This document shows positions 1,940-22,691 of a DNA stretch of 62,333 nucleotides, piece after piece. Within the stretch, counting starts at the first letter, position 1. Each line of letters opens with the position of its first letter. The notes under the pieces are model-generated. The model saw only the letters and a list, made by a program, of their open reading frames with translations. It did not search any database and was not told the origin of the DNA. The DNA is taken from the NCBI GenBank assembly GCA_013202285.1, contig JABMRV010000161.1, positions 1 to 62,333 of the forward strand, read 5' to 3'. Made by a program: the position numbers and the translations under genes. Origin of the DNA: a bacterium. Lineage in GTDB: Bacteria; Electryoneota; AABM5-125-24; Hatepunaeales; Hatepunaeaceae.

Positions 1940-1956
1940 CGATTATCCTGCAGTAG

Positions 1957-2919
1957 TTAATCAAAGATGCTTTCCTGTTGACCATAATCTATTTGTTCTG
2001 CTGTCTTTTCCAATAAAATGGTCGGATTCTCCAATGCCGCATTCGGAAATTCACTTCCCCATCCCATCCTTATCATGCTACGATTGCCTGGAATGTCGGC
2101 ATCGCGGACGAACAACGGCACGCGCCAGTGACGGTGGTTTTCATCTGCGCCCGCCCAAGTTCCGCCTTTGTTCTCCTCAGAACTCACGATAACCGCCGCT
2201 TGCGCCAGTCCGTATATCATCTTGTTGCGTTCCATCGCGCCACCCACGCTGAAAGGAGTATCCGGTTTACGCAGCGTAATCATCGTCAATCGTCCCGTTT
2301 CGAGCATATCGCGGAGTTCAGGTACAGCCGAGTTCCGCGCCAGATCACCGGCAAGCACGCCGATGACCTCGCCCCCGTTTTCCAGCGCCCCTCTCATAGT
2401 CCAACTGTCCGAGCCGCGAGCTCCGCCGGAGATTATCGTCAATTCGTTGCGCGCACATGATTCGCCGAACTGAAAAGCGAATTCTTCGCCATCCTGGTCG
2501 ATGTTTCGAGAACCCACCACTGCGATGCCGGGTGTATTTAATAGGTTTTGATCGCCCGCGCCGAACAGCAGCAGGGGAGCTTTACGTTCCAGCGTTTCTA
2601 TTGCCCTGTCGGGGTATGCGTCGTCCTCGCGACTGATTATCCAAAATCCGCTGCTGAGCCATGATTCTACACTCAGCGCCAGCTCGCCGCCACGGTTCAG
2701 TAGGTCTTGCAACCTGTCCGGTGTAATGCCTGAAACCGGCAGTTCTGCGTACTTTCCAATGGTAGATATTTCAAGCAGTTCCGATGGTTTCATATCCCGT
2801 TCGTTCAACCAGCCCGACAGTGCGTTGTATTCCGATAAGGACAACGGTTGGTTGTGATTGTCGTCGCCTAACCTGCCGCATAATAATAGAACGGTCTGTG
2901 TTTCCAATGTCAGGTTCAA
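1957..2919 (-). CDS. DprA/Smf-like Rossmann-fold protein (PsyrA/ShosA-like putative antitoxin)
   Basis: 320-aa ORF with the DprA core GIAVVGSRN...TIISGGARGSDS...VIGVLAGDL. A 4-nt ATGA-type overlap (2916-2919) links it to the upstream helicase-PRTase gene. Confidence 0.8.
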   Translation of the reverse strand: MNLTLETQTVLLLCGRLGDDNHNQPLSLSEYNALSGWLNERDMKPSELLEISTIGKYAELPVSGITPDRLQDLLNRGGELALSVESWLSSGFWIISREDDAYPDRAIETLERKAPLLLFGAGDQNLLNTPGIAVVGSRNIDQDGEEFAFQFGESCARNELTIISGGARGSDSWTMRGALENGGEVIGVLAGDLARNSAVPELRDMLETGRLTMITLRKPDTPFSVGGAMERNKMIYGLAQAAVIVSSEENKGGTWAGADENHRHWRVPLFVRDADIPGNRSMIRMGWGSEFPNAALENPTILLEKTAEQIDYGQQESIFD

Positions 2920-4241
2920 TTGCGAATCCCCTTCGAGGTTCGCGCCAGGGCGAATGGAAACACCGCTCCGGATCCAGCGCGTCGTAGTTCCAATCCGGCG
3001 ATGGCGAGCGTCCAGCCGGAATCGACCATGTCATCGATAAGTAATACAGCTCTGCCGGTTGCCCCCTTCAATTCCTTAATCTCAAGCGATCCAACTAAGT
3101 TGTTCGCCTGATAATATGAGTTCTCCATCTCTTTTTGTGGTAAGGTGTCTTTTACTTTCCTGATATAGTTTTTCCCGTAAGGTATTCCCAATTTGGCACA
3201 TAGCCTCCTCGCCAGGTCTGTAACCAGGTGGGGATGTCGTGTTGACGGTATCGACGTACCCCATTCAGGAAACGGTTTGGGACGCCATCGCTCTCGGATC
3301 ATCTGGGCTGCGTCGTCGATAAGCTGTCCGTCGAATCTACCGAGTATGTACTTGCCTTGTTTTACCAGTTCGCCCAGACCCGGATCACCCCAGCGGCATA
3401 GGATGCGACCGGTTTCATTGCGCCACTCTTCTGGAATTTTGGATCCGGATATACCGTATATTTCCAAAACTCCCGCTGGAGCCATCTTACGAGCCTTGAG
3501 CGGCATTTCGAGGCGACTTAGAAAAACCTGCGCTCGTTTTAAGGTTTCCTCATGATATTCGGTAGGGACAATATCCTCACCACGGCAGTTTGCGCAGACA
3601 CCACAGGGTTCCGGTTCAGGGTCGTTAAGTTCCCGAATTAAAAAAACCATCAAACATTCGTGGCAGTTCATATACTGGAGCATTCGCTCCCGCTCCATAT
3701 CGCGCTGCCGCTTCAGGCGTTCGATGCGGTCAGTGTCCGGCTGGTATGACACCGGTGTCCGGAACCATTTACGCCCCATTAGATTGACAGGTTGTGGTGT
3801 TTCCACGCTTAACACCTTTAGAACGTGCTCCATCTCCCCTGCCGATATGTTGACCTTGCCATGCAATTCATGTTGTGTAAGCCCATCCCGGGTGTCTTCA
3901 AGCGCTTTTATAACCTCCTGAATGGCAGACAAGGGAGGCATGGCGGTACCCTGGAAATAATCGAGGATATCCTGGTCCTCCGCACCCTGGAAGAGGATAC
4001 CGTAAGCATTATCCACAGCCCGCCCGGCGCGTCCAACTTGCTGGTAATAGTGCACCACCGATCCGGGCGTCTGGTAGTGAATTACGAATCCCAAGTCTGG
4101 TTTGTCAAATCCCATTCCCAGCGCTGTCGTCGCCACCATTGCCTTTATTTCATTGCGGAGCAACCGTTGCTCCAGAGACGCTCGCAAACCGGTACCCCTC
4201 CGTGTCCACCTCGCTGTGATATGATACGGCTTCGATGCCAT
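2916..4241 (-). CDS. RecQ-family helicase::phosphoribosyltransferase fusion, C-terminal fragment (helicase C-domain, Cys-rich region, PRTase domain)
   Basis: 441-aa ORF. Real homology begins at LEQRLLRNEIKAMVATTALGMGFDKPD, followed by motif VI QQVGRAGR and the Cys cluster CHEC...CGVCANC. The C-terminal PRPP-binding signature is VLLIDDMVDSGWT. The N-terminal ~20 residues are an out-of-frame artefact of the frameshift. Confidence 0.85.
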   Translation of the reverse strand: MASKPYHITARWTRRGTGLRASLEQRLLRNEIKAMVATTALGMGFDKPDLGFVIHYQTPGSVVHYYQQVGRAGRAVDNAYGILFQGAEDQDILDYFQGTAMPPLSAIQEVIKALEDTRDGLTQHELHGKVNISAGEMEHVLKVLSVETPQPVNLMGRKWFRTPVSYQPDTDRIERLKRQRDMERERMLQYMNCHECLMVFLIRELNDPEPEPCGVCANCRGEDIVPTEYHEETLKRAQVFLSRLEMPLKARKMAPAGVLEIYGISGSKIPEEWRNETGRILCRWGDPGLGELVKQGKYILGRFDGQLIDDAAQMIRERWRPKPFPEWGTSIPSTRHPHLVTDLARRLCAKLGIPYGKNYIRKVKDTLPQKEMENSYYQANNLVGSLEIKELKGATGRAVLLIDDMVDSGWTLAIAGLELRRAGSGAVFPFALARTSKGIRN

Positions 4242-5028
4242 TCTGCTTCAGCCAATCCGCTGTTCGGTCGGCGTCGTGCTTGGTAAGTGTGTAGATTATA
4301 CCTGACCCCGGCAGTCCGGGTAGATTGTCCGCCAGCCATGCCAACCGCGCCGCCGGGTCGAGCAGGCAGATGTTCTGCAGCATCAGCGATTCGCGCTTTA
4401 AGGGACCCCTTCGTACGTCGATCCCACCGCCGAACTGTTCGACAATATCCGTGATGACCCGGTCATTGGCGGTAGCAGTTGTAGCGAGCAGCGGTACATT
4501 GGGGGGCAGAGCCTTGATTATTCTCCCGATGCGCCGGTAGTCAGGGCGGAAGTCGTGACCCCAATCTGATATGCAATGAGCTTCGTCCACCACGAACAGA
4601 CCTGTCTGCTGCGCCATAGGCAGTAGATACTCACGTCTAAACCTTTCATTCGCAAGCCGTTCCGGCGCTACCATGAGCAGGTCGATTTCGTTATTGTTTA
4701 TTTGTCCCTTAATGCCTTCCCAATCAGCACGGTTTTCCGAGTTGATAGTAGCAGCGGTAATAAGCAGCGAACCGGCGCTATCTATTTGATTGCGCATTAA
4801 TGAGAGCAGGGGTGAAATGAGCAGTGTCGGTCCTGAGCCTCTATCCCTCAGAAACCGTGTAGCGAGAAAATATACAATGCTCTTTCCCCACCCCGTCTGT
4901 TGTACCAGCAGCAGTTTCCCATGCCGGTTGACCAGATCGTCGACTGCCTCCCATTGCCCCGGGCGAAAATTGGCTTCGGGATTCCCAAGGGCTGATTTTA
5001 GGGCAGAAAGCGCTTCGTCTTGCTTCAA
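4150..5028 (-). CDS. RecQ-family helicase, N-terminal fragment (DEAH ATPase domain), separated from the rest by a frameshift
   Basis: 292-aa ORF with a TTG start. Walker A is QQTGWGKS and the RecQ-type DEAH box is VVDEAHCISDWGHDFRPDYRR. After AVSYHSEVDTEG the frame runs into a short nonsense tail, and the continuation is in the frame of 2916..4241. Confidence 0.85.
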   Translation of the reverse strand: MKQDEALSALKSALGNPEANFRPGQWEAVDDLVNRHGKLLLVQQTGWGKSIVYFLATRFLRDRGSGPTLLISPLLSLMRNQIDSAGSLLITAATINSENRADWEGIKGQINNNEIDLLMVAPERLANERFRREYLLPMAQQTGLFVVDEAHCISDWGHDFRPDYRRIGRIIKALPPNVPLLATTATANDRVITDIVEQFGGGIDVRRGPLKRESLMLQNICLLDPAARLAWLADNLPGLPGSGIIYTLTKHDADRTADWLKQNGIEAVSYHSEVDTEGYRFASVSGATVAPQ

Positions 5029-5185
5029 TTTGTCAATTAATTAATCTGTCTTCAATTATCTATTAAATCAGTCAGTGTGGCATACCATCGGAGAATTACA
5101 ATGTTATCTCTTTTCCCTCATCCTTCCCACACCACTAACAACCTCCTCAACGCTACGATCTGGGCGGAAAGGTAATACAAGCCGC

Positions 5186-5575
5186 CTATCTCTTCGCCAA
5201 CTCAGTAATTTCCAAAGCAGTATCGAATAACTGCATGATTTCATCAGGTTTGAAATGGGACTCCGGTAATGGTGGATACCGATGCTTGAAGTAAAACGCT
5301 GATATGGTTCGTCCAAAGCGATAATACTTCTCAAATGTCTTATCGTATCCGGCAGCTTTGTCCATCAAGTATTCATTATCGTGTGTTTTTATCAGTTCCC
5401 ATCCTCTGTGGATAAGATATCCTTTTAGATACTTTTCAACAGCCTGCTGAATATGCGTCGCCACCACATCCTCAAGACCCTTGCGAGTCAACAGAATACG
5501 TGCGCTTTCCAAGTCACGCTCAGCGTATTCAAACCACTCGTTGCGTTCTTTTTCTTTTTCGTCCATCTCGTTCAT
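5186..5575 (-). CDS. HEPN domain protein (toxin-type partner of MNT)
   Basis: 129-aa all-helical ORF with the conserved C-terminal KHRYPP segment of the MNT-associated HEPN family. It overlaps the upstream MNT gene. Confidence 0.75.
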   Translation of the reverse strand: MNEMDEKEKERNEWFEYAERDLESARILLTRKGLEDVVATHIQQAVEKYLKGYLIHRGWELIKTHDNEYLMDKAAGYDKTFEKYYRFGRTISAFYFKHRYPPLPESHFKPDEIMQLFDTALEITELAKR

Positions 5576-5912
5576 ACAACATCCTGCCCTTTGTAACTAT
5601 CTCATTCAAGAAGGCATCGCCTCTGCCCAACCTCTCTTTTATTTCTGAGGGTGTATAAACATTAGGCGATACCGGAATTCCCCGCTGTGGATCGAAGATT
5701 ATCTCCTTGACCTTTACGAATCGATCCACCCAGCGAAGTGCCGTCTCCTTCACAATAAACAGATCAATATCGCTGTGCCGCGTCGGATTACCCCATGCGT
5801 AGGAACCGTAGAGAATGATCCTCTCCGGATGGTAATCACGCTTGAGCTTTTCGACTATGTCGTCCAGGATTTTATCTATATCGTGATTCAAATATGTTTC
5901 CTCATCCTTCAT
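5529..5912 (-). CDS. Minimal nucleotidyltransferase (MNT) domain protein
   Basis: 127-aa ORF with the pol-beta-type NTase motif RIILYGSYAWGNPTRHSDIDLFIV. It sits directly upstream of the HEPN gene. Confidence 0.85.
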   Translation of the reverse strand: MKDEETYLNHDIDKILDDIVEKLKRDYHPERIILYGSYAWGNPTRHSDIDLFIVKETALRWVDRFVKVKEIIFDPQRGIPVSPNVYTPSEIKERLGRGDAFLNEIVTKGRMLYERDGRKRKRTQRVV

Positions 5913-5915
5913 CCT

Positions 5916-6332
5916 TCATATATCTCGTCCATCGCTCTTCTTCTCCTTTTCTGAAGCCCTGCGCTGTTTTTTCTCCTCACGACGCTGCCGACGCTGCGCC
6001 TTGTGTTCTTTCCGTAATTTTTCCTCCGCCGCCAGCACATCTCCCTCCCGTTTCTCGATCAGATCGAGGAAGTAGGCTATCGATTCGCGTCTCTCCAGTA
6101 CCAGCTGAAGTTCATCCCATTCGGGAAGCCCGAAGAAACCCCTTACAATCGGTGCAAAGAAGACCATCACCTGGCTGCCGATATAGTTCATCGGTCGTAC
6201 CGATTCGAGGAACAGGATTGCCGGTACGGTCATCCGCAGTTTAACGACTCTGTCAGCTAATTTATCGAGCAGCTCACGCTGGCTGTCGGTCAACTCATCG
6301 GCAAAGGAAGCCGGAATGTTCTCACCGGTCAT
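5916..6332 (-). CDS. Hypothetical small protein (hydrophobic core, highly basic/acidic Lys-Arg-Glu tail)
   Basis: 138-aa ORF. ATGA overlap with the upstream gene (6329-6332), and only 3 nt before the MNT start. No family recognised. Confidence 0.5.
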   Translation of the reverse strand: MTGENIPASFADELTDSQRELLDKLADRVVKLRMTVPAILFLESVRPMNYIGSQVMVFFAPIVRGFFGLPEWDELQLVLERRESIAYFLDLIEKREGDVLAAEEKLRKEHKAQRRQRREEKKQRRASEKEKKSDGRDI

Positions 6333-6811
6333 GACGAATCGCCCTCGTTTTCAACAAGTGAGGTTGGTTCAGTTTCAGGCAGCCCTTTGACTTCAGGTGA
6401 GTATTTCCTGATTATCTCGATAATCCTGTCCCGGTTGTCCCGGTACGGCAGATATAACCCGCGAAAGTTTTCCAATCGCGATTTGACCGGAAAGGGGGAG
6501 AGGAATATGCCATCTTTTTCATCATTGATCGATCTTATTCGATCCCATCCGATTTTACGATTGAACAGCCATCGGTTCATGCTGGCGCCGCTGTCGTTAA
6601 TAATATAGGTTGTCGGCAGAAAGAAAGAAGTCAGCGAAATGAGCAGTATCAAAGCCGCGCCTATCGTGAACAGGATACTGCCGATGTTCCAGTACACCGC
6701 CCATATAGTTATAATCACCACCGACCAGAAGAGTATTCCTTTCATCGGGCTTTCGCGCATGGGAAAGGCAGTGTATCTGTATTCAGCGGTGTTTTTATTG
6801 ACTTCTTCCAT
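6329..6811 (-). CDS. Hypothetical 2-TM membrane protein with a possible PH-like C-terminal domain
   Basis: 160-aa ORF. Two hydrophobic helices (GILFWSVVIITIWAVYW, ILFTIGAALILLISLTSFF) are followed by a soluble ~80-aa domain. Confidence 0.5.
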   Translation of the reverse strand: MEEVNKNTAEYRYTAFPMRESPMKGILFWSVVIITIWAVYWNIGSILFTIGAALILLISLTSFFLPTTYIINDSGASMNRWLFNRKIGWDRIRSINDEKDGIFLSPFPVKSRLENFRGLYLPYRDNRDRIIEIIRKYSPEVKGLPETEPTSLVENEGDSS

Positions 6812-6911: not shown

Positions 6912-8609
6912 CTAATACCTGTCCTTCGCCAGCCTGAATCCGACATCGTAAAACCTCGCACTGGGACGTCCTCGATTGCGATATGCCGACCTGCTACGCC
7001 TCGCATTATCCTCCCACGTAGGCAGTACGGAACTGCCTCCACGAATCACACGATGCGAAACCACCGGAAATAGCCACGGATCACCGACGTCGGGAGCAGT
7101 CTCATACCAGTCGTGATACCAGTCCTCGCACCACTCGGCGACATTTCCGTGCATGTCGTACAATCCCCATGGGTTCGGCATCAACTGACCGACGGGAAAA
7201 CTGCTTCCTGAAAGTCCTTCCGCACTCCAGGAGAATATCCCCAATGCATGGTAATCCGGATCATCTCCCCAGGGAAACCTCGTATCGGTTTCGACCCGAC
7301 ACGCATATTCCCATTCGGCTTCCGAGGGCAGGCGGTAATTCTTCCCCGGATCAAGTAGGTTCAGCCTTCTGATAAACGCCTTGACTTCATTCCATGACAC
7401 CTGTTCGACGGGGAGATTGTCTTCCTTGTAGTAAGAGGGATTGTACCCCATGACCTGTTTCCATTGAGACTGCATGACTTCGGTTGTCTGGAGATGGAAT
7501 GCCTTGACGGTGACTTGATGCTGCGGTCCTTCATCGTCATCACGCCCCTGCTCAGATGGTGGGGAACCCATGACGAATGTCCCGCCGGGTATAAATGTAA
7601 AATTGATTTCAGGGATGAATGTATGAGGCTTTAGATTGACTGATTGAGAGAGCTGTTCAACCGATTCAGTTTCACCATTTGGCTCTGTGAAAGGAGGCTG
7701 AGGGAGAGCCGGACCGAATTGCTCGATGGGGAAGATGAAATCTCCATGATGGTTACCTGGGTCGGTGATCTGTCCATATTGAGGGTGCTGCCTGGCGAGC
7801 GAACGTTTTATCACATTGTCCCGCAGGTAAACGCTGATCTCAGATGCGGTCATGTAACCGTCGCTGTTGAGGTCGGCGTCGCCATCGAGCGCCTGCAGAA
7901 GACAGTAGTTGAAAATGCTCCGGTCGGGGACCTCTTCATCCTTCTTCCCCGCGGTGATGAACTGGCGCGCAGGATGCATCAGGTGTGCCTTATCAAGCCT
8001 CCTGTTGTTCCAGTCCGGTGGAATGACCGCTCCGGAAAAGCAGCAGTCGAATATGAACAGGGCATGTCTAACGGTCAGACTTTCCGCAATGGCAGCAATG
8101 TTCTTCATCGGAATGGCTACTTCGAGGAATCTATCTCTGTCCACCTCGACCTTTGGTGCCTCAACCGGAAGGATATAGCCCTGGTTATTTCCGTCCTCAT
8201 CGGTGACGGTTTCACCGTGTCCGCTGAAATAGAACAGGAACCGGTCATCTGATTCTCCAACTCCTCGGCTGATAGAGTCCAGAACCGCTTCCAGCGCTGA
8301 TTTGTCCGGATCGAACAGTGTTACAACTTCAAACCCTCGTTTCCTGAGCGCTTCCGCGATGGACCTGGCGTCCTTAACCGCATGGTGCAACTGGAGCCAG
8401 CCGTTTGTGTAGTTGCTTACGCCTATTACAAAGGCGTAGCTGTAGCGGTACAGAATCGTATCCGCACCGGAGGGGGTTCGACCTATTGTGGCATGTTCTT
8501 CATTGTCTCCGAGAGAGACTGCTGAGAGAGAGGATAAGAGGAATGTAATCAGTATGACGATCAAACGTTTCATTTGGAAGGTTGTATCCCGGAATAGTCT
8601 GTAATACAT
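6912..8609 (-). CDS. Secreted caspase-like (C14) peptidase fused to an FGE/SUMF1-type (formylglycine-generating-enzyme-like) domain
   Basis: 565-aa ORF; the likely true start is M13 at 8573, giving the signal peptide MKRLIVILITFLLSSLSAVS. Caspase His and Cys contexts are FYFSGHGE and IFDCCFSGA. An EF-hand/dockerin-like DGDADLNSDGYMTASE is present. C-terminal FGE-type motifs are YRLPSEAEWEYACR, GLYDMHGNVAEWCEDW and RVIRGGS. Confidence 0.85.
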   Translation of the reverse strand: MYYRLFRDTTFQMKRLIVILITFLLSSLSAVSLGDNEEHATIGRTPSGADTILYRYSYAFVIGVSNYTNGWLQLHHAVKDARSIAEALRKRGFEVVTLFDPDKSALEAVLDSISRGVGESDDRFLFYFSGHGETVTDEDGNNQGYILPVEAPKVEVDRDRFLEVAIPMKNIAAIAESLTVRHALFIFDCCFSGAVIPPDWNNRRLDKAHLMHPARQFITAGKKDEEVPDRSIFNYCLLQALDGDADLNSDGYMTASEISVYLRDNVIKRSLARQHPQYGQITDPGNHHGDFIFPIEQFGPALPQPPFTEPNGETESVEQLSQSVNLKPHTFIPEINFTFIPGGTFVMGSPPSEQGRDDDEGPQHQVTVKAFHLQTTEVMQSQWKQVMGYNPSYYKEDNLPVEQVSWNEVKAFIRRLNLLDPGKNYRLPSEAEWEYACRVETDTRFPWGDDPDYHALGIFSWSAEGLSGSSFPVGQLMPNPWGLYDMHGNVAEWCEDWYHDWYETAPDVGDPWLFPVVSHRVIRGGSSVLPTWEDNARRSRSAYRNRGRPSARFYDVGFRLAKDRY

Positions 8610-21563: not shown

Positions 21564-22691
21564 TCAATACCTCAACAACGCCCCGATTCCCCCCACCTTA
21601 ACCAACCTCGGCGCCTTCTCTAACATATCGATGCGCGCTCCCTGATCCATCGCCTTCTGAATGGCAAGATCGAGCATATAATTCACTTTCCTCATCTCAC
21701 CGCCGCAGAACGGGCAGGGTCGATCTCTCTCTGTCGTCAGTGCGGAACAGACCTTGCACACCATCCCCGGTGAAACCATGTTCGACATCACGTACAGCTT
21801 GTGTACGTTGCCCTGCTGTATAGCATCCAGCACGTCCGACAACCCTAAGACTGCGCCAGCGCCGCCTCCGCCGGTGCTGAACAGTTCATCTAACGCCTGG
21901 CGTTCGAACTTGTACTCGATCTCCTTCATCAACGGCAGGCAGCGTTTTAGAACATCAGTAGGTGAAGCGTTGTATTCCACGGCAAAATCACCGACAACCC
22001 TCTCCTTCAGATCGCCGGGCAGCCATTCCTCGAAACGACCGCGCGCCGATTCAGTTCCTCCGAGGAGAATGCGTTTGATTCCCTCATCACGACGGAAACT
22101 GTTGATGACGTTGGTTAATTCCCTGTAGAGTTGTTTCCGGCTCGTATCCTTCTTTTTACGGGCGCGTACTTCGCCCATATCGCCGGAGCTACCGTCTCTG
22201 GTAGGATCTGTTTTCGGACGCGGATTAATTATAATCTTTATCTCTTCGATCTGTCCCATATCGGCAATCAGCACCCTGGCGCGTTCTCCACGTACCACGA
22301 TTACCAGGTAACGCTGGTACAGATCTACCATCGCAGCTAAAGGCTTGATATACGGATCATGGTCAATAATCATTTGATTGGTGAAGGGCATGGCGGTGTG
22401 ATATATGCGCCAGAAATCGTCTGCCTGACTGCTGAACAGCGCCAAGCCCCGCCTTAAACCCTCCGGTCGGTCTTTCAAGTATCGTTCAATTCTAACAATA
22501 TCCGGTTTGACTGATTTTTTATCCTCCGGTTTCATTTTTTTTGTAGTATCACGTGCAAGATTCTTAAACTGCAGTAACCATTCATCTTTTTTTAGTTTGT
22601 TCTTCGGATCAACATCGAGAAAGAGACTAATGAAAAACTTGTCACGCATAACGTGTGACGCCAGTTCTTTCAGTTCTTTCCTGGTGAGCAT
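21564..22691 (-). CDS. Bacterial eRF1/Pelota-like (baeRF family) protein with C-terminal Zn ribbon
   Basis: 375-aa ORF with GGAGG RBS. N-terminal FISLFLDVDPKN is typical of baeRF families. The central region parallels the eRF1 M-domain (DGSSGDMGEVRARKKK...YRELTNVINSF...IKRILLGGTESARGRF). The C-domain has VLGLSDVLDAIQQGNVHKLYV plus CKVC...CPFC. Confidence 0.6.
   Translation of the reverse strand: MLTRKELKELASHVMRDKFFISLFLDVDPKNKLKKDEWLLQFKNLARDTTKKMKPEDKKSVKPDIVRIERYLKDRPEGLRRGLALFSSQADDFWRIYHTAMPFTNQMIIDHDPYIKPLAAMVDLYQRYLVIVVRGERARVLIADMGQIEEIKIIINPRPKTDPTRDGSSGDMGEVRARKKKDTSRKQLYRELTNVINSFRRDEGIKRILLGGTESARGRFEEWLPGDLKERVVGDFAVEYNASPTDVLKRCLPLMKEIEYKFERQALDELFSTGGGGAGAVLGLSDVLDAIQQGNVHKLYVMSNMVSPGMVCKVCSALTTERDRPCPFCGGEMRKVNYMLDLAIQKAMDQGARIDMLEKAPRLVKVGGIGALLRY

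Follow-up and report, generated by a model that had tools for sequence, protein, structure and literature searches.

A PsyrTA (RqlHI) toxin–antitoxin module with a frameshifted toxin gene in an uncultured FCB-group bacterium

We describe a pair of genes on a 62,333-nucleotide (nt) contig, JABMRV010000161.1 (the whole of which is referred to below as 'the window'), from the draft genome of an uncultured bacterium of the Fibrobacteres–Chlorobi–Bacteroidetes (FCB) group. The genes lie on the minus strand at 1957-5028; all coordinates given here are positions in the whole window. We consider, with a probability of about 90%, that the two genes form a canonical PsyrTA (= RqlHI) toxin–antitoxin (TA) and anti-phage module, that its toxin gene is broken by a frameshift and was most likely inactivated recently, and that it shares a variable slot with an MNT/HEPN pair. 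Profile, fold and gene order agree on the assignment to PsyrTA, and this agreement is our reason for making it. The system is an already-known one. Its toxin combines a RecQ-like helicase and a phosphoribosyltransferase (PRTase), and this 'fusion' is the normal architecture of the PsyrT family, since the family's own profile extends across the PRTase region.

The list of open reading frames (ORFs) gives three, rather than two, on the minus strand of 1957-5028. The ORFs, their in-frame parts and the point of breakage are as follows.

5028..4150, minus strand: N-terminal ORF of psyrT/rqlH, 292 amino acids (aa), with a Pfam DEAD match
4241..2916, minus strand: C-terminal ORF of psyrT/rqlH, 441 aa, with Helicase_C, RecQ_Zn_bind and Pribosyltran matches
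4198..5028, minus strand: N-terminal part of psyrT in frame, 277 codons, TTG start at 5028; the ORF continues out of frame to the stop at 4150
2916..4196, minus strand: C-terminal part of psyrT in frame, 426 codons plus stop
4195-4198, minus strand: frameshift site, GGGG on the coding strand and CCCC on the plus strand
1957..2919, minus strand: psyrA/rqlI, 320 aa, DprA-like (SLOG/Rossmann) antitoxin with DNA_processg_A and SLOG cluster4 matches

Inspection of the sequence places psyrA directly 3' of psyrT on the same strand. It starts with the TTG of aaTTGA, which overlaps the TGA stop of psyrT by 4 nt, and an AAGGGG stretch lies ~8 nt 5' of this start. An earlier first-pass annotation of the DNA had reported such an overlap with a DprA/Smf-fold gene, and it is real. 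The gene order and the overlapping stop and start agree with the published arrangement, in which rqlH is always upstream of rqlI and overlap is usual (PMC4670107).

Both proteins match PsyrTA family profiles strongly and over most of their length. The N-terminal piece of the toxin covers positions 5-278 of the 689 in the PADLOC PsyrT profile (PDLC03928; E 5e-126, 419.7 bits) and the C-terminal piece covers positions 279-686 (E 1.8e-140, 467.4 bits); the runner-up PADLOC family for the toxin, DpdF, reaches 209 bits. The DprA-like protein matches the PADLOC PsyrA profile (PDLC03927) over positions 1-300 of 398 (E 9.2e-96, 319 bits), and Pfam finds DNA_processg_A (2.6e-34) and SLOG cluster4 (2.6e-8) in it. 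The housekeeping families score far lower: 173 + 91 bits against recQ (TIGR01389), where the equivalog cut-off is 640, and 83 bits against dprA (TIGR00732), where it is 191, so that neither cut-off is reached. The first-pass annotation had left it to a comparison of hidden Markov models whether PsyrTA or housekeeping RecQ and DprA are the nearer relatives of the proteins; judged by these profile scores (420 + 467 and 319 bits for the PsyrTA families) PsyrTA is much the nearer. The same annotation had placed the pair in the realm of PsyrTA and ShosTA, and rightly so: by profile, fold and gene order the pair belongs to PsyrTA. It does not belong to ShosTA itself: the ShosT profile gives a weak match (E 1.6e-4, 19.6 bits) confined to the PRTase core, positions 114-212 of 237, and the ShosA profile gives 75 bits as against 319 for PsyrA. 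Membership of ShosTA was considered and rejected, the ShosT match not being full-length and ShosA not being the best antitoxin family.

The toxin pieces carry, in order, the elements expected of PsyrT. Pfam DEAD (3.2e-22) marks lobe 1 of a RecQ-like superfamily 2 ATPase and the start of lobe 2 in the N-terminal piece, and Helicase_C (8.3e-10) marks the remainder of lobe 2 in the C-terminal piece, where RecQ_Zn_bind (1.1e-3) and Pribosyltran (2.4e-4) match weakly. No HRDC match was returned by Pfam for the toxin pieces. The RecQ DEAH ATPase, the helicase C-domain, the Cys-rich region and the PRPP (phosphoribosyl pyrophosphate) signature that the first-pass annotation had listed are all where it had put them on the minus strand, as motifs and Pfam matches confirm. 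The motifs and C-terminal modules are these.

4879-4896, minus strand: Walker A, TGWGKS, with K49
4576-4590, minus strand: motif II, VDEAH, with D148
4465-4479, minus strand: motif III, TATAN
4020-4043, minus strand: motif VI, QQVGRAGR
3585-3665, minus strand: RecQ four-cysteine zinc module, CHEC...CGVCANC
about 2931-3509, minus strand: ComF-like type I PRTase domain
3009-3047, minus strand: PRPP loop, VLLIDDMVDSGWT

An RqlH-type linker of ~118 residues separates motif VI from the first cysteine, and the cysteines of the zinc region are C178, C181, C198, C201 and C204. The catalytic residues K49 and D148 and the PRPP loop are all present. In an alignment of 31 sequences, 30 of them homologues of ~700 aa, no variation is seen at PRPP-loop residues D389, D392, S393, W395 and T396 or at three zinc cysteines (C198, C201 and C204), and next to none at C181; the PRPP loop is retained in 30/30 of the homologues. 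A homologue search with the C-terminal piece had 7,999 of 8,000 scored candidates pass E 0.001, and most of the best 120, some partial sequences aside, are 690-720 aa long. The helicase-to-PRTase architecture is common to thousands of homologues of ~700 aa.

Structure models point the same way. The C-terminal 426 residues of PsyrT, modelled with AlphaFold, have a mean predicted local distance difference test score (pLDDT) of 78.5; residues 1-70 are poor, as expected of half a RecA lobe, and pLDDT exceeds 85 in each 10-residue block over residues 231-420. Foldseek against the PDB matches this model to ComF of Helicobacter pylori (7p0h, 1.1e-5), to adenine phosphoribosyltransferase (APRT; 5zgo and 6fsp) and to ShosT (8zvb, 8zvd and 8zvc). 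The C-terminal domain is accordingly modelled as a type I PRTase fold, as the first-pass annotation had anticipated. Searched against PDB sequences, the C-terminal part returned helicase matches alone, and it took a fold search to reveal the PRTase kinship. The PsyrA model is of high quality (pLDDT 93.4, predicted TM-score 0.90) and matches DprA of Streptococcus pneumoniae (3uqz, E 3.7e-15, TM-score 0.68/0.76) and ShosA of Escherichia coli (8zva, 2.7e-14); the PsyrA family profile, run against PDB sequences, likewise finds DprA (1.4e-20) and ShosA (2e-15). The downstream protein is thus predicted to adopt the DprA fold, which again bears out what had been proposed for it.

The composite toxin has been described before. 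Ordonez, Unciuleac and Shuman (2012) found RqlH of Mycobacterium smegmatis, a protein of 691 aa without an HRDC domain, to consist of a RecQ-like ATPase, a linker, a four-cysteine zinc domain and a C-terminal ComF-like domain with PRTase motifs, and the K49A and D148A changes to abolish its ATPase activity (PMC3378886). Russell and Mulvey (2015) reported that RqlH of E. coli is genotoxic through its PRTase domain, that PRPP-loop mutants are non-toxic, and that the toxin is neutralised by the DprA-like RqlI, which binds its PRTase domain (PMC4670107). The first-pass annotation had taken the PsyrT toxin for a helicase only; this is mistaken, the PsyrT profile being covered from 5 to 686 of 689 positions with the PRTase included, and the literature agrees (PMC3378886, PMC4670107). 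Its further claim, that the locus is a new merger linking PsyrTA with ShosTA, rests on that mistaken view and for this reason fails: the fusion is native to PsyrT, and the link is already in print, since Millman et al. (2022, preprint) stated that PsyrTA (= RqlHI) and ShosTA both pair a DprA-like antitoxin with a PRTase-containing toxin.

Set beside the characterised RqlHI systems, the present pair is alike in the order of toxin domains (RecQ-like ATPase, linker, four-cysteine zinc module, ComF-like PRTase), in the retention of K49, D148 and the PRPP-loop aspartates, and in having a DprA-like antitoxin directly downstream with an overlapping start. Even the numbers of residues K49 and D148 are those of the RqlH residues mutated in the published work (PMC3378886 and PMC4670107). 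It differs in that the toxin frame is broken by one base in the assembly, in that PsyrA is short (320 aa) and without the C-terminal helix-turn-helix (HTH) region found in E. coli RqlI (400 aa), and in its host, an uncultured FCB-group bacterium. With ShosTA it shares a toxic module that is a PRPP-binding PRTase, a DprA-like antitoxin, and a structural resemblance to ShosT (8zvb/8zvd) and ShosA (8zva); the two families also have the same outcome, DNA damage and filamentation. ShosT, however, is not reported to contain a helicase or a zinc module, and both are present in the toxin here. ShosTA is a sister family of PsyrTA, and not the family of the present pair. Among further sources, Sberro et al. 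2013 is said to be one for PsyrTA/RqlHI, and Kimelman 2012 and Rousset 2022 for ShosTA; phage defence by PsyrTA was reportedly shown by Millman et al. 2022.

The short antitoxin is no oddity. By length, PsyrA homologues form two classes: about half have 320-345 aa and the remainder ~420-440 aa. The short class, to which the present copy belongs, is without the C-terminal ~100 residues that match the HTH region of E. coli RqlI. Residues 1-320 of RqlI, with no HTH region, fully rescue cells from RqlH, and the HTH region is dispensable for neutralisation (PMC4670107).

What sets this copy apart is its toxin gene. In the assembly the helicase–PRTase gene is not one frame: a one-base shift in the GGGG run splits it into the 292-aa and 441-aa ORFs. 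The first-pass annotation had put both toxin domains in one polypeptide, hinting at a break only by its mention of a 'repaired toxin', and with the frameshift at 4195-4198 this does not hold for the gene as assembled. Upstream of the shift the frame reads ...YHSEVDTE, and from the GGGG run onward GTGLRASLEQRLL... in the +1 frame. In terms of the ORFs, the first reads ...AVSYHSEVDTEG and then goes out of frame to its stop, and GTGLRASLEQRLLRNEIKAMVATTALGMGFDKPD, which continues the homology, follows in the +1 frame. The closest homologue, P0001, has YHSDIDPGGTGQREKLEQMLL across the shift point in a single frame (in the wider stretch, YHSDIDPGGTGQREKLEQMLLHNEIKALVATTALGMGFDKPD, also in a single frame), and because it reads through in this way we place the shift inside the four-G run. 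Positions 278 and 279 of the PsyrT profile abut there, within helicase lobe 2. Neither half of the toxin shows a second lesion, and all conserved motifs are kept. As read from the assembled sequence, the locus consists of an intact antitoxin and a broken toxin, with no full-length toxin made. Recent inactivation is the most likely history, since no further defect is visible in either half. Modules of this kind commonly end up as an antitoxin accompanied by a dead toxin.

A programmed frameshift, or phase variation at the G run, was also considered and rejected. The G run is absent in homologues, and four bases are too short for slippage; on these grounds neither a programmed shift nor a phase-variable tract is likely. 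Public metagenomes did not add a second view of the site: an exact-pattern scan of metagenome contigs, allowing any run length at the shift site, found nothing, and the only other contig with an identical PsyrA, a Logan contig of run SRR28106059, ends 337 nt upstream of psyrA, short of the shift.

Some points weigh against the reading given at the outset. Taken alone, the Pfam PRTase match lies under its curated cut-off (20.9 versus 26.3 bits); a PsyrTA structure was not found by PDB sequence and fold searches with both proteins; and our literature search yielded no paper resolving the substrate of the PsyrT PRTase, nor one giving a PsyrTA structure. In addition, the frameshift could be an error of assembly or consensus, in which case the same PsyrTA pair would have an intact toxin in the cell and be a working defence module. 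This is a minority possibility that deserves to be taken seriously. In its favour, just one base of a homopolymer run is affected, neither half has lost a conserved motif or shows a second defect, and the genome is a fragmented draft, of 3.0 Mb in 261 contigs. Yet a four-base run is short for a typical homopolymer error, and in a screen of the 62-kb contig psyrT was the sole broken gene among ~47 ORFs. Toxin genes of TA and defence modules are, moreover, a frequent target of inactivation, which we count against an error. Neither toxin ORF, with the boundaries used here, is in the protein collection that contains PsyrA; this fits a pseudogene call by the depositor and is a hint only. On balance we regard the break as rather probably real in the sampled population. 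If it is real and tolerated, what lies downstream of the break (part of lobe 2, the linker, the zinc module and the PRTase) might conceivably be translated alone and act with PsyrA as a helicase-less, ShosTA-like module. We think this very improbable; homologues have neither a conserved slippery site nor a conserved internal start at the shift point. Were it true, the locus would be a natural intermediate for the origin of a stand-alone PRTase toxin from PsyrT.

How an intact copy of this module would work can be sketched by analogy. Because the PDB searches gave no PsyrTA structure, we borrow the mechanism from RqlHI genetics and from ShosTA, as published for RqlH of E. coli and M. smegmatis and for ShosTA itself. 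PsyrT would load on DNA via its 3'-5' helicase core, and its PRPP-binding PRTase domain would be the genotoxic effector, using PRPP to damage DNA or nucleotide metabolism. The PRTase would be restrained both by the helicase domain and by the DprA-like PsyrA, the latter binding the PRTase domain directly. Infection would halt the supply of antitoxin or disturb the complex, the toxin would be released, and phage replication would be aborted. For ShosTA, toxicity requires PRPP binding, ShosT perturbs purine metabolism and DNA replication, and the trigger is the loss of an unstable antitoxin once the phage has shut off protein synthesis in the host (Pu et al. 2025, PMC11961720; NAR 2026, PMC12961424).

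The surroundings of the pair vary between relatives. The neighbouring genes that matter for the comparison are these.

71-1939: GlmL-like gene (PF13941, E 3.8e-128), 17 nt downstream of psyrA
5575..5186, minus strand: HEPN gene (Pfam HEPN)
5912..5529, minus strand: MNT gene (Pfam NTP_transf_2/Polbeta)
5916-6332: orf138, a small conserved backbone gene

Full-length PsyrT occurs in 6 of 40 relatives, in each as an open single frame of 699-733 codons, and in 6/6 of these the helicase gene is followed by a DprA-like gene. Same-family PsyrT copies are 48-63% identical to the present copy, as against 81-84% for the adjacent GlmL-like gene. In the three same-family genomes with PsyrT, that copy and the GlmL-like gene are on different contigs, and the order PsyrT–PsyrA–GlmL-like recurs only on the contig of the closest PsyrT homologue. 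We compared the slot (1940-5915) with the corresponding loci L018, L022 (G004), L023 (G010), L024 (G020) and L027-L105. Here the slot, bounded by orf138 and the GlmL-like gene, contains MNT/HEPN and PsyrTA; in G004 and G010, two genomes of the same family, it is occupied by a DinB-like gene together with a type IIG Eco57I/MmeI-like restriction–methylase fusion of 1,067-1,085 aa; and in L018 it holds two DinB-like genes and PsyrTA. The L018 pair, P0001/P0123, is an intact orthologue with 62-70% identity in the toxin and 55% in the antitoxin. The orf138 homologue and the GlmL-like gene are directly adjacent in many FCB-group genomes. The distribution of PsyrTA is patchy, and the pair is cargo in a small variable defence slot; it is possible that the orf138–GlmL-like junction is a small defence hotspot.

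The remaining explanations can be weighed on this evidence. A novel chimera, in which a PsyrT helicase toxin has been fused with a ShosT PRTase toxin and so provides an evolutionary link between separate families, would account for the presence of both domain types, for the weak ShosT profile match of the PRTase part (E 1.6e-4) and for its structural likeness to ShosT. The PsyrT family profile already spans both domains, however, thousands of ~700-aa homologues have the same architecture, and that architecture was described in 2012 and 2015 (PMC3378886, PMC4670107) and the PsyrTA–ShosTA link drawn in 2022; a chimera can hardly be credited. Slightly less far-fetched, though still most improbable, is that the genes are housekeeping RecQ and DprA, serving recombination repair or natural transformation and belonging to no conflict system. 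Homology to RecQ and DprA is evident, and a likeness to the competence protein ComF is seen in the PRTase domain; with the housekeeping proteins the pair has in common its helicase core, its Rossmann/SLOG DNA-binding fold and its PRTase fold. But the scores fall far short of both equivalog cut-offs, that for recQ and that for dprA, Pfam gave no match to HRDC, and the three modules are combined here in a mobile two-gene unit. Its patchy distribution (a full-length copy in 6/40 relatives, on another contig than the GlmL-like gene in the three same-family genomes that have one), its lower same-family identity than that of the adjacent core gene (48-63% versus 81-84%) and its position in a slot filled by a restriction enzyme in relatives all speak against housekeeping.

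The third neighbour invites a further alternative, a three-gene system with the GlmL/MutL-like ASKHA ATPase as its third component. The spacing of 17 nt is tight and the same order occurs on the contig of the closest homologue. Four relatives with both genes, on the other hand, have them on different contigs or 600 kb apart, PsyrT or PsyrA occurs in 0 of 80 loci around GlmL-like genes of other species, and in many of those 80 loci the GlmL-like gene directly follows an orf138 homologue and is therefore backbone. There is next to no likelihood in this alternative, and the GlmL-like gene was rejected as a third PsyrTA component on the grounds of the separate locations in four relatives and the 0/80 loci. 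A two-gene PsyrTA module with a broken toxin thus remains our preferred account.

The flanking genes deserve some remarks of their own. The GlmL-like gene has no glutamate-mutase subunits nearby. It is single-copy in its own genome and in four of six relatives examined, and absent from the other two. Over the best 80 of 513 matching loci it is 65-84% identical, most of the named ones belonging to FCB-group phyla, and it is usually preceded by an orf138 homologue. Its closest homologues (79-84% identity) are in unclassified metagenome-assembled genomes; the nearest named ones (~66-72%) are mostly from phyla of the FCB group, among them Eisenbacteria, Zixibacteria, Marinimicrobia and Ignavibacteria, and it is to a candidate lineage of that group that this points. 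On the other side of the pair, the MNT/HEPN toxin–antitoxin genes (5186..5912) are other cargo of the same inserted segment and not part of PsyrTA. Upstream of them, orf138 and orf160 (5916-6811) encode two small proteins, that of orf160 with two predicted transmembrane segments. In L018, L022 and L023 the homologues of orf138 (60-79% identical) and orf160 (50-59%) adjoin the GlmL-like gene, and no MNT/HEPN-like sequence was found in the compared stretches of these three loci; since they do so without MNT/HEPN, orf138 and orf160 are conserved backbone rather than members of a four-gene MNT/HEPN cassette.

Marks of the insertion itself were sought in the window. No tRNA gene occurs in it, the inserted segment is not flanked by any meaningful direct or inverted repeats, and base composition gives no foreign signal, PsyrTA having 52-54% GC like the neighbouring carB and GlmL-like genes. 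A promoter and terminator scan gave counts not above those of shuffled sequence; the sigma-70 consensus used may not apply in this phylum. Neighbouring genes encode type IX secretion system (T9SS) sorting domains. Adjoining the TA/defence cargo, 6912-8609 encodes a 565-aa protein with a caspase-like Peptidase_C14 domain (5.5e-19) and a C-terminal FGE-sulfatase domain (1.4e-47), which matches the PADLOC 'caspase' family at 1.2e-14. Farther away, 21564-22691 encodes a stand-alone bacterial archaeo-eukaryotic release-factor-like protein of baeRF family 10 (5.4e-27).

The significance of the locus is small. It is another copy of PsyrTA, probably in decay, from an FCB-group lineage that has been poorly sampled, and annotation of the PADLOC type would name it. 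The gain is small and twofold: it lies in a correction, PsyrT being natively a helicase joined to a PRTase, and in the variable slot between orf138 and the GlmL-like gene, which could be mined for further defence genes.

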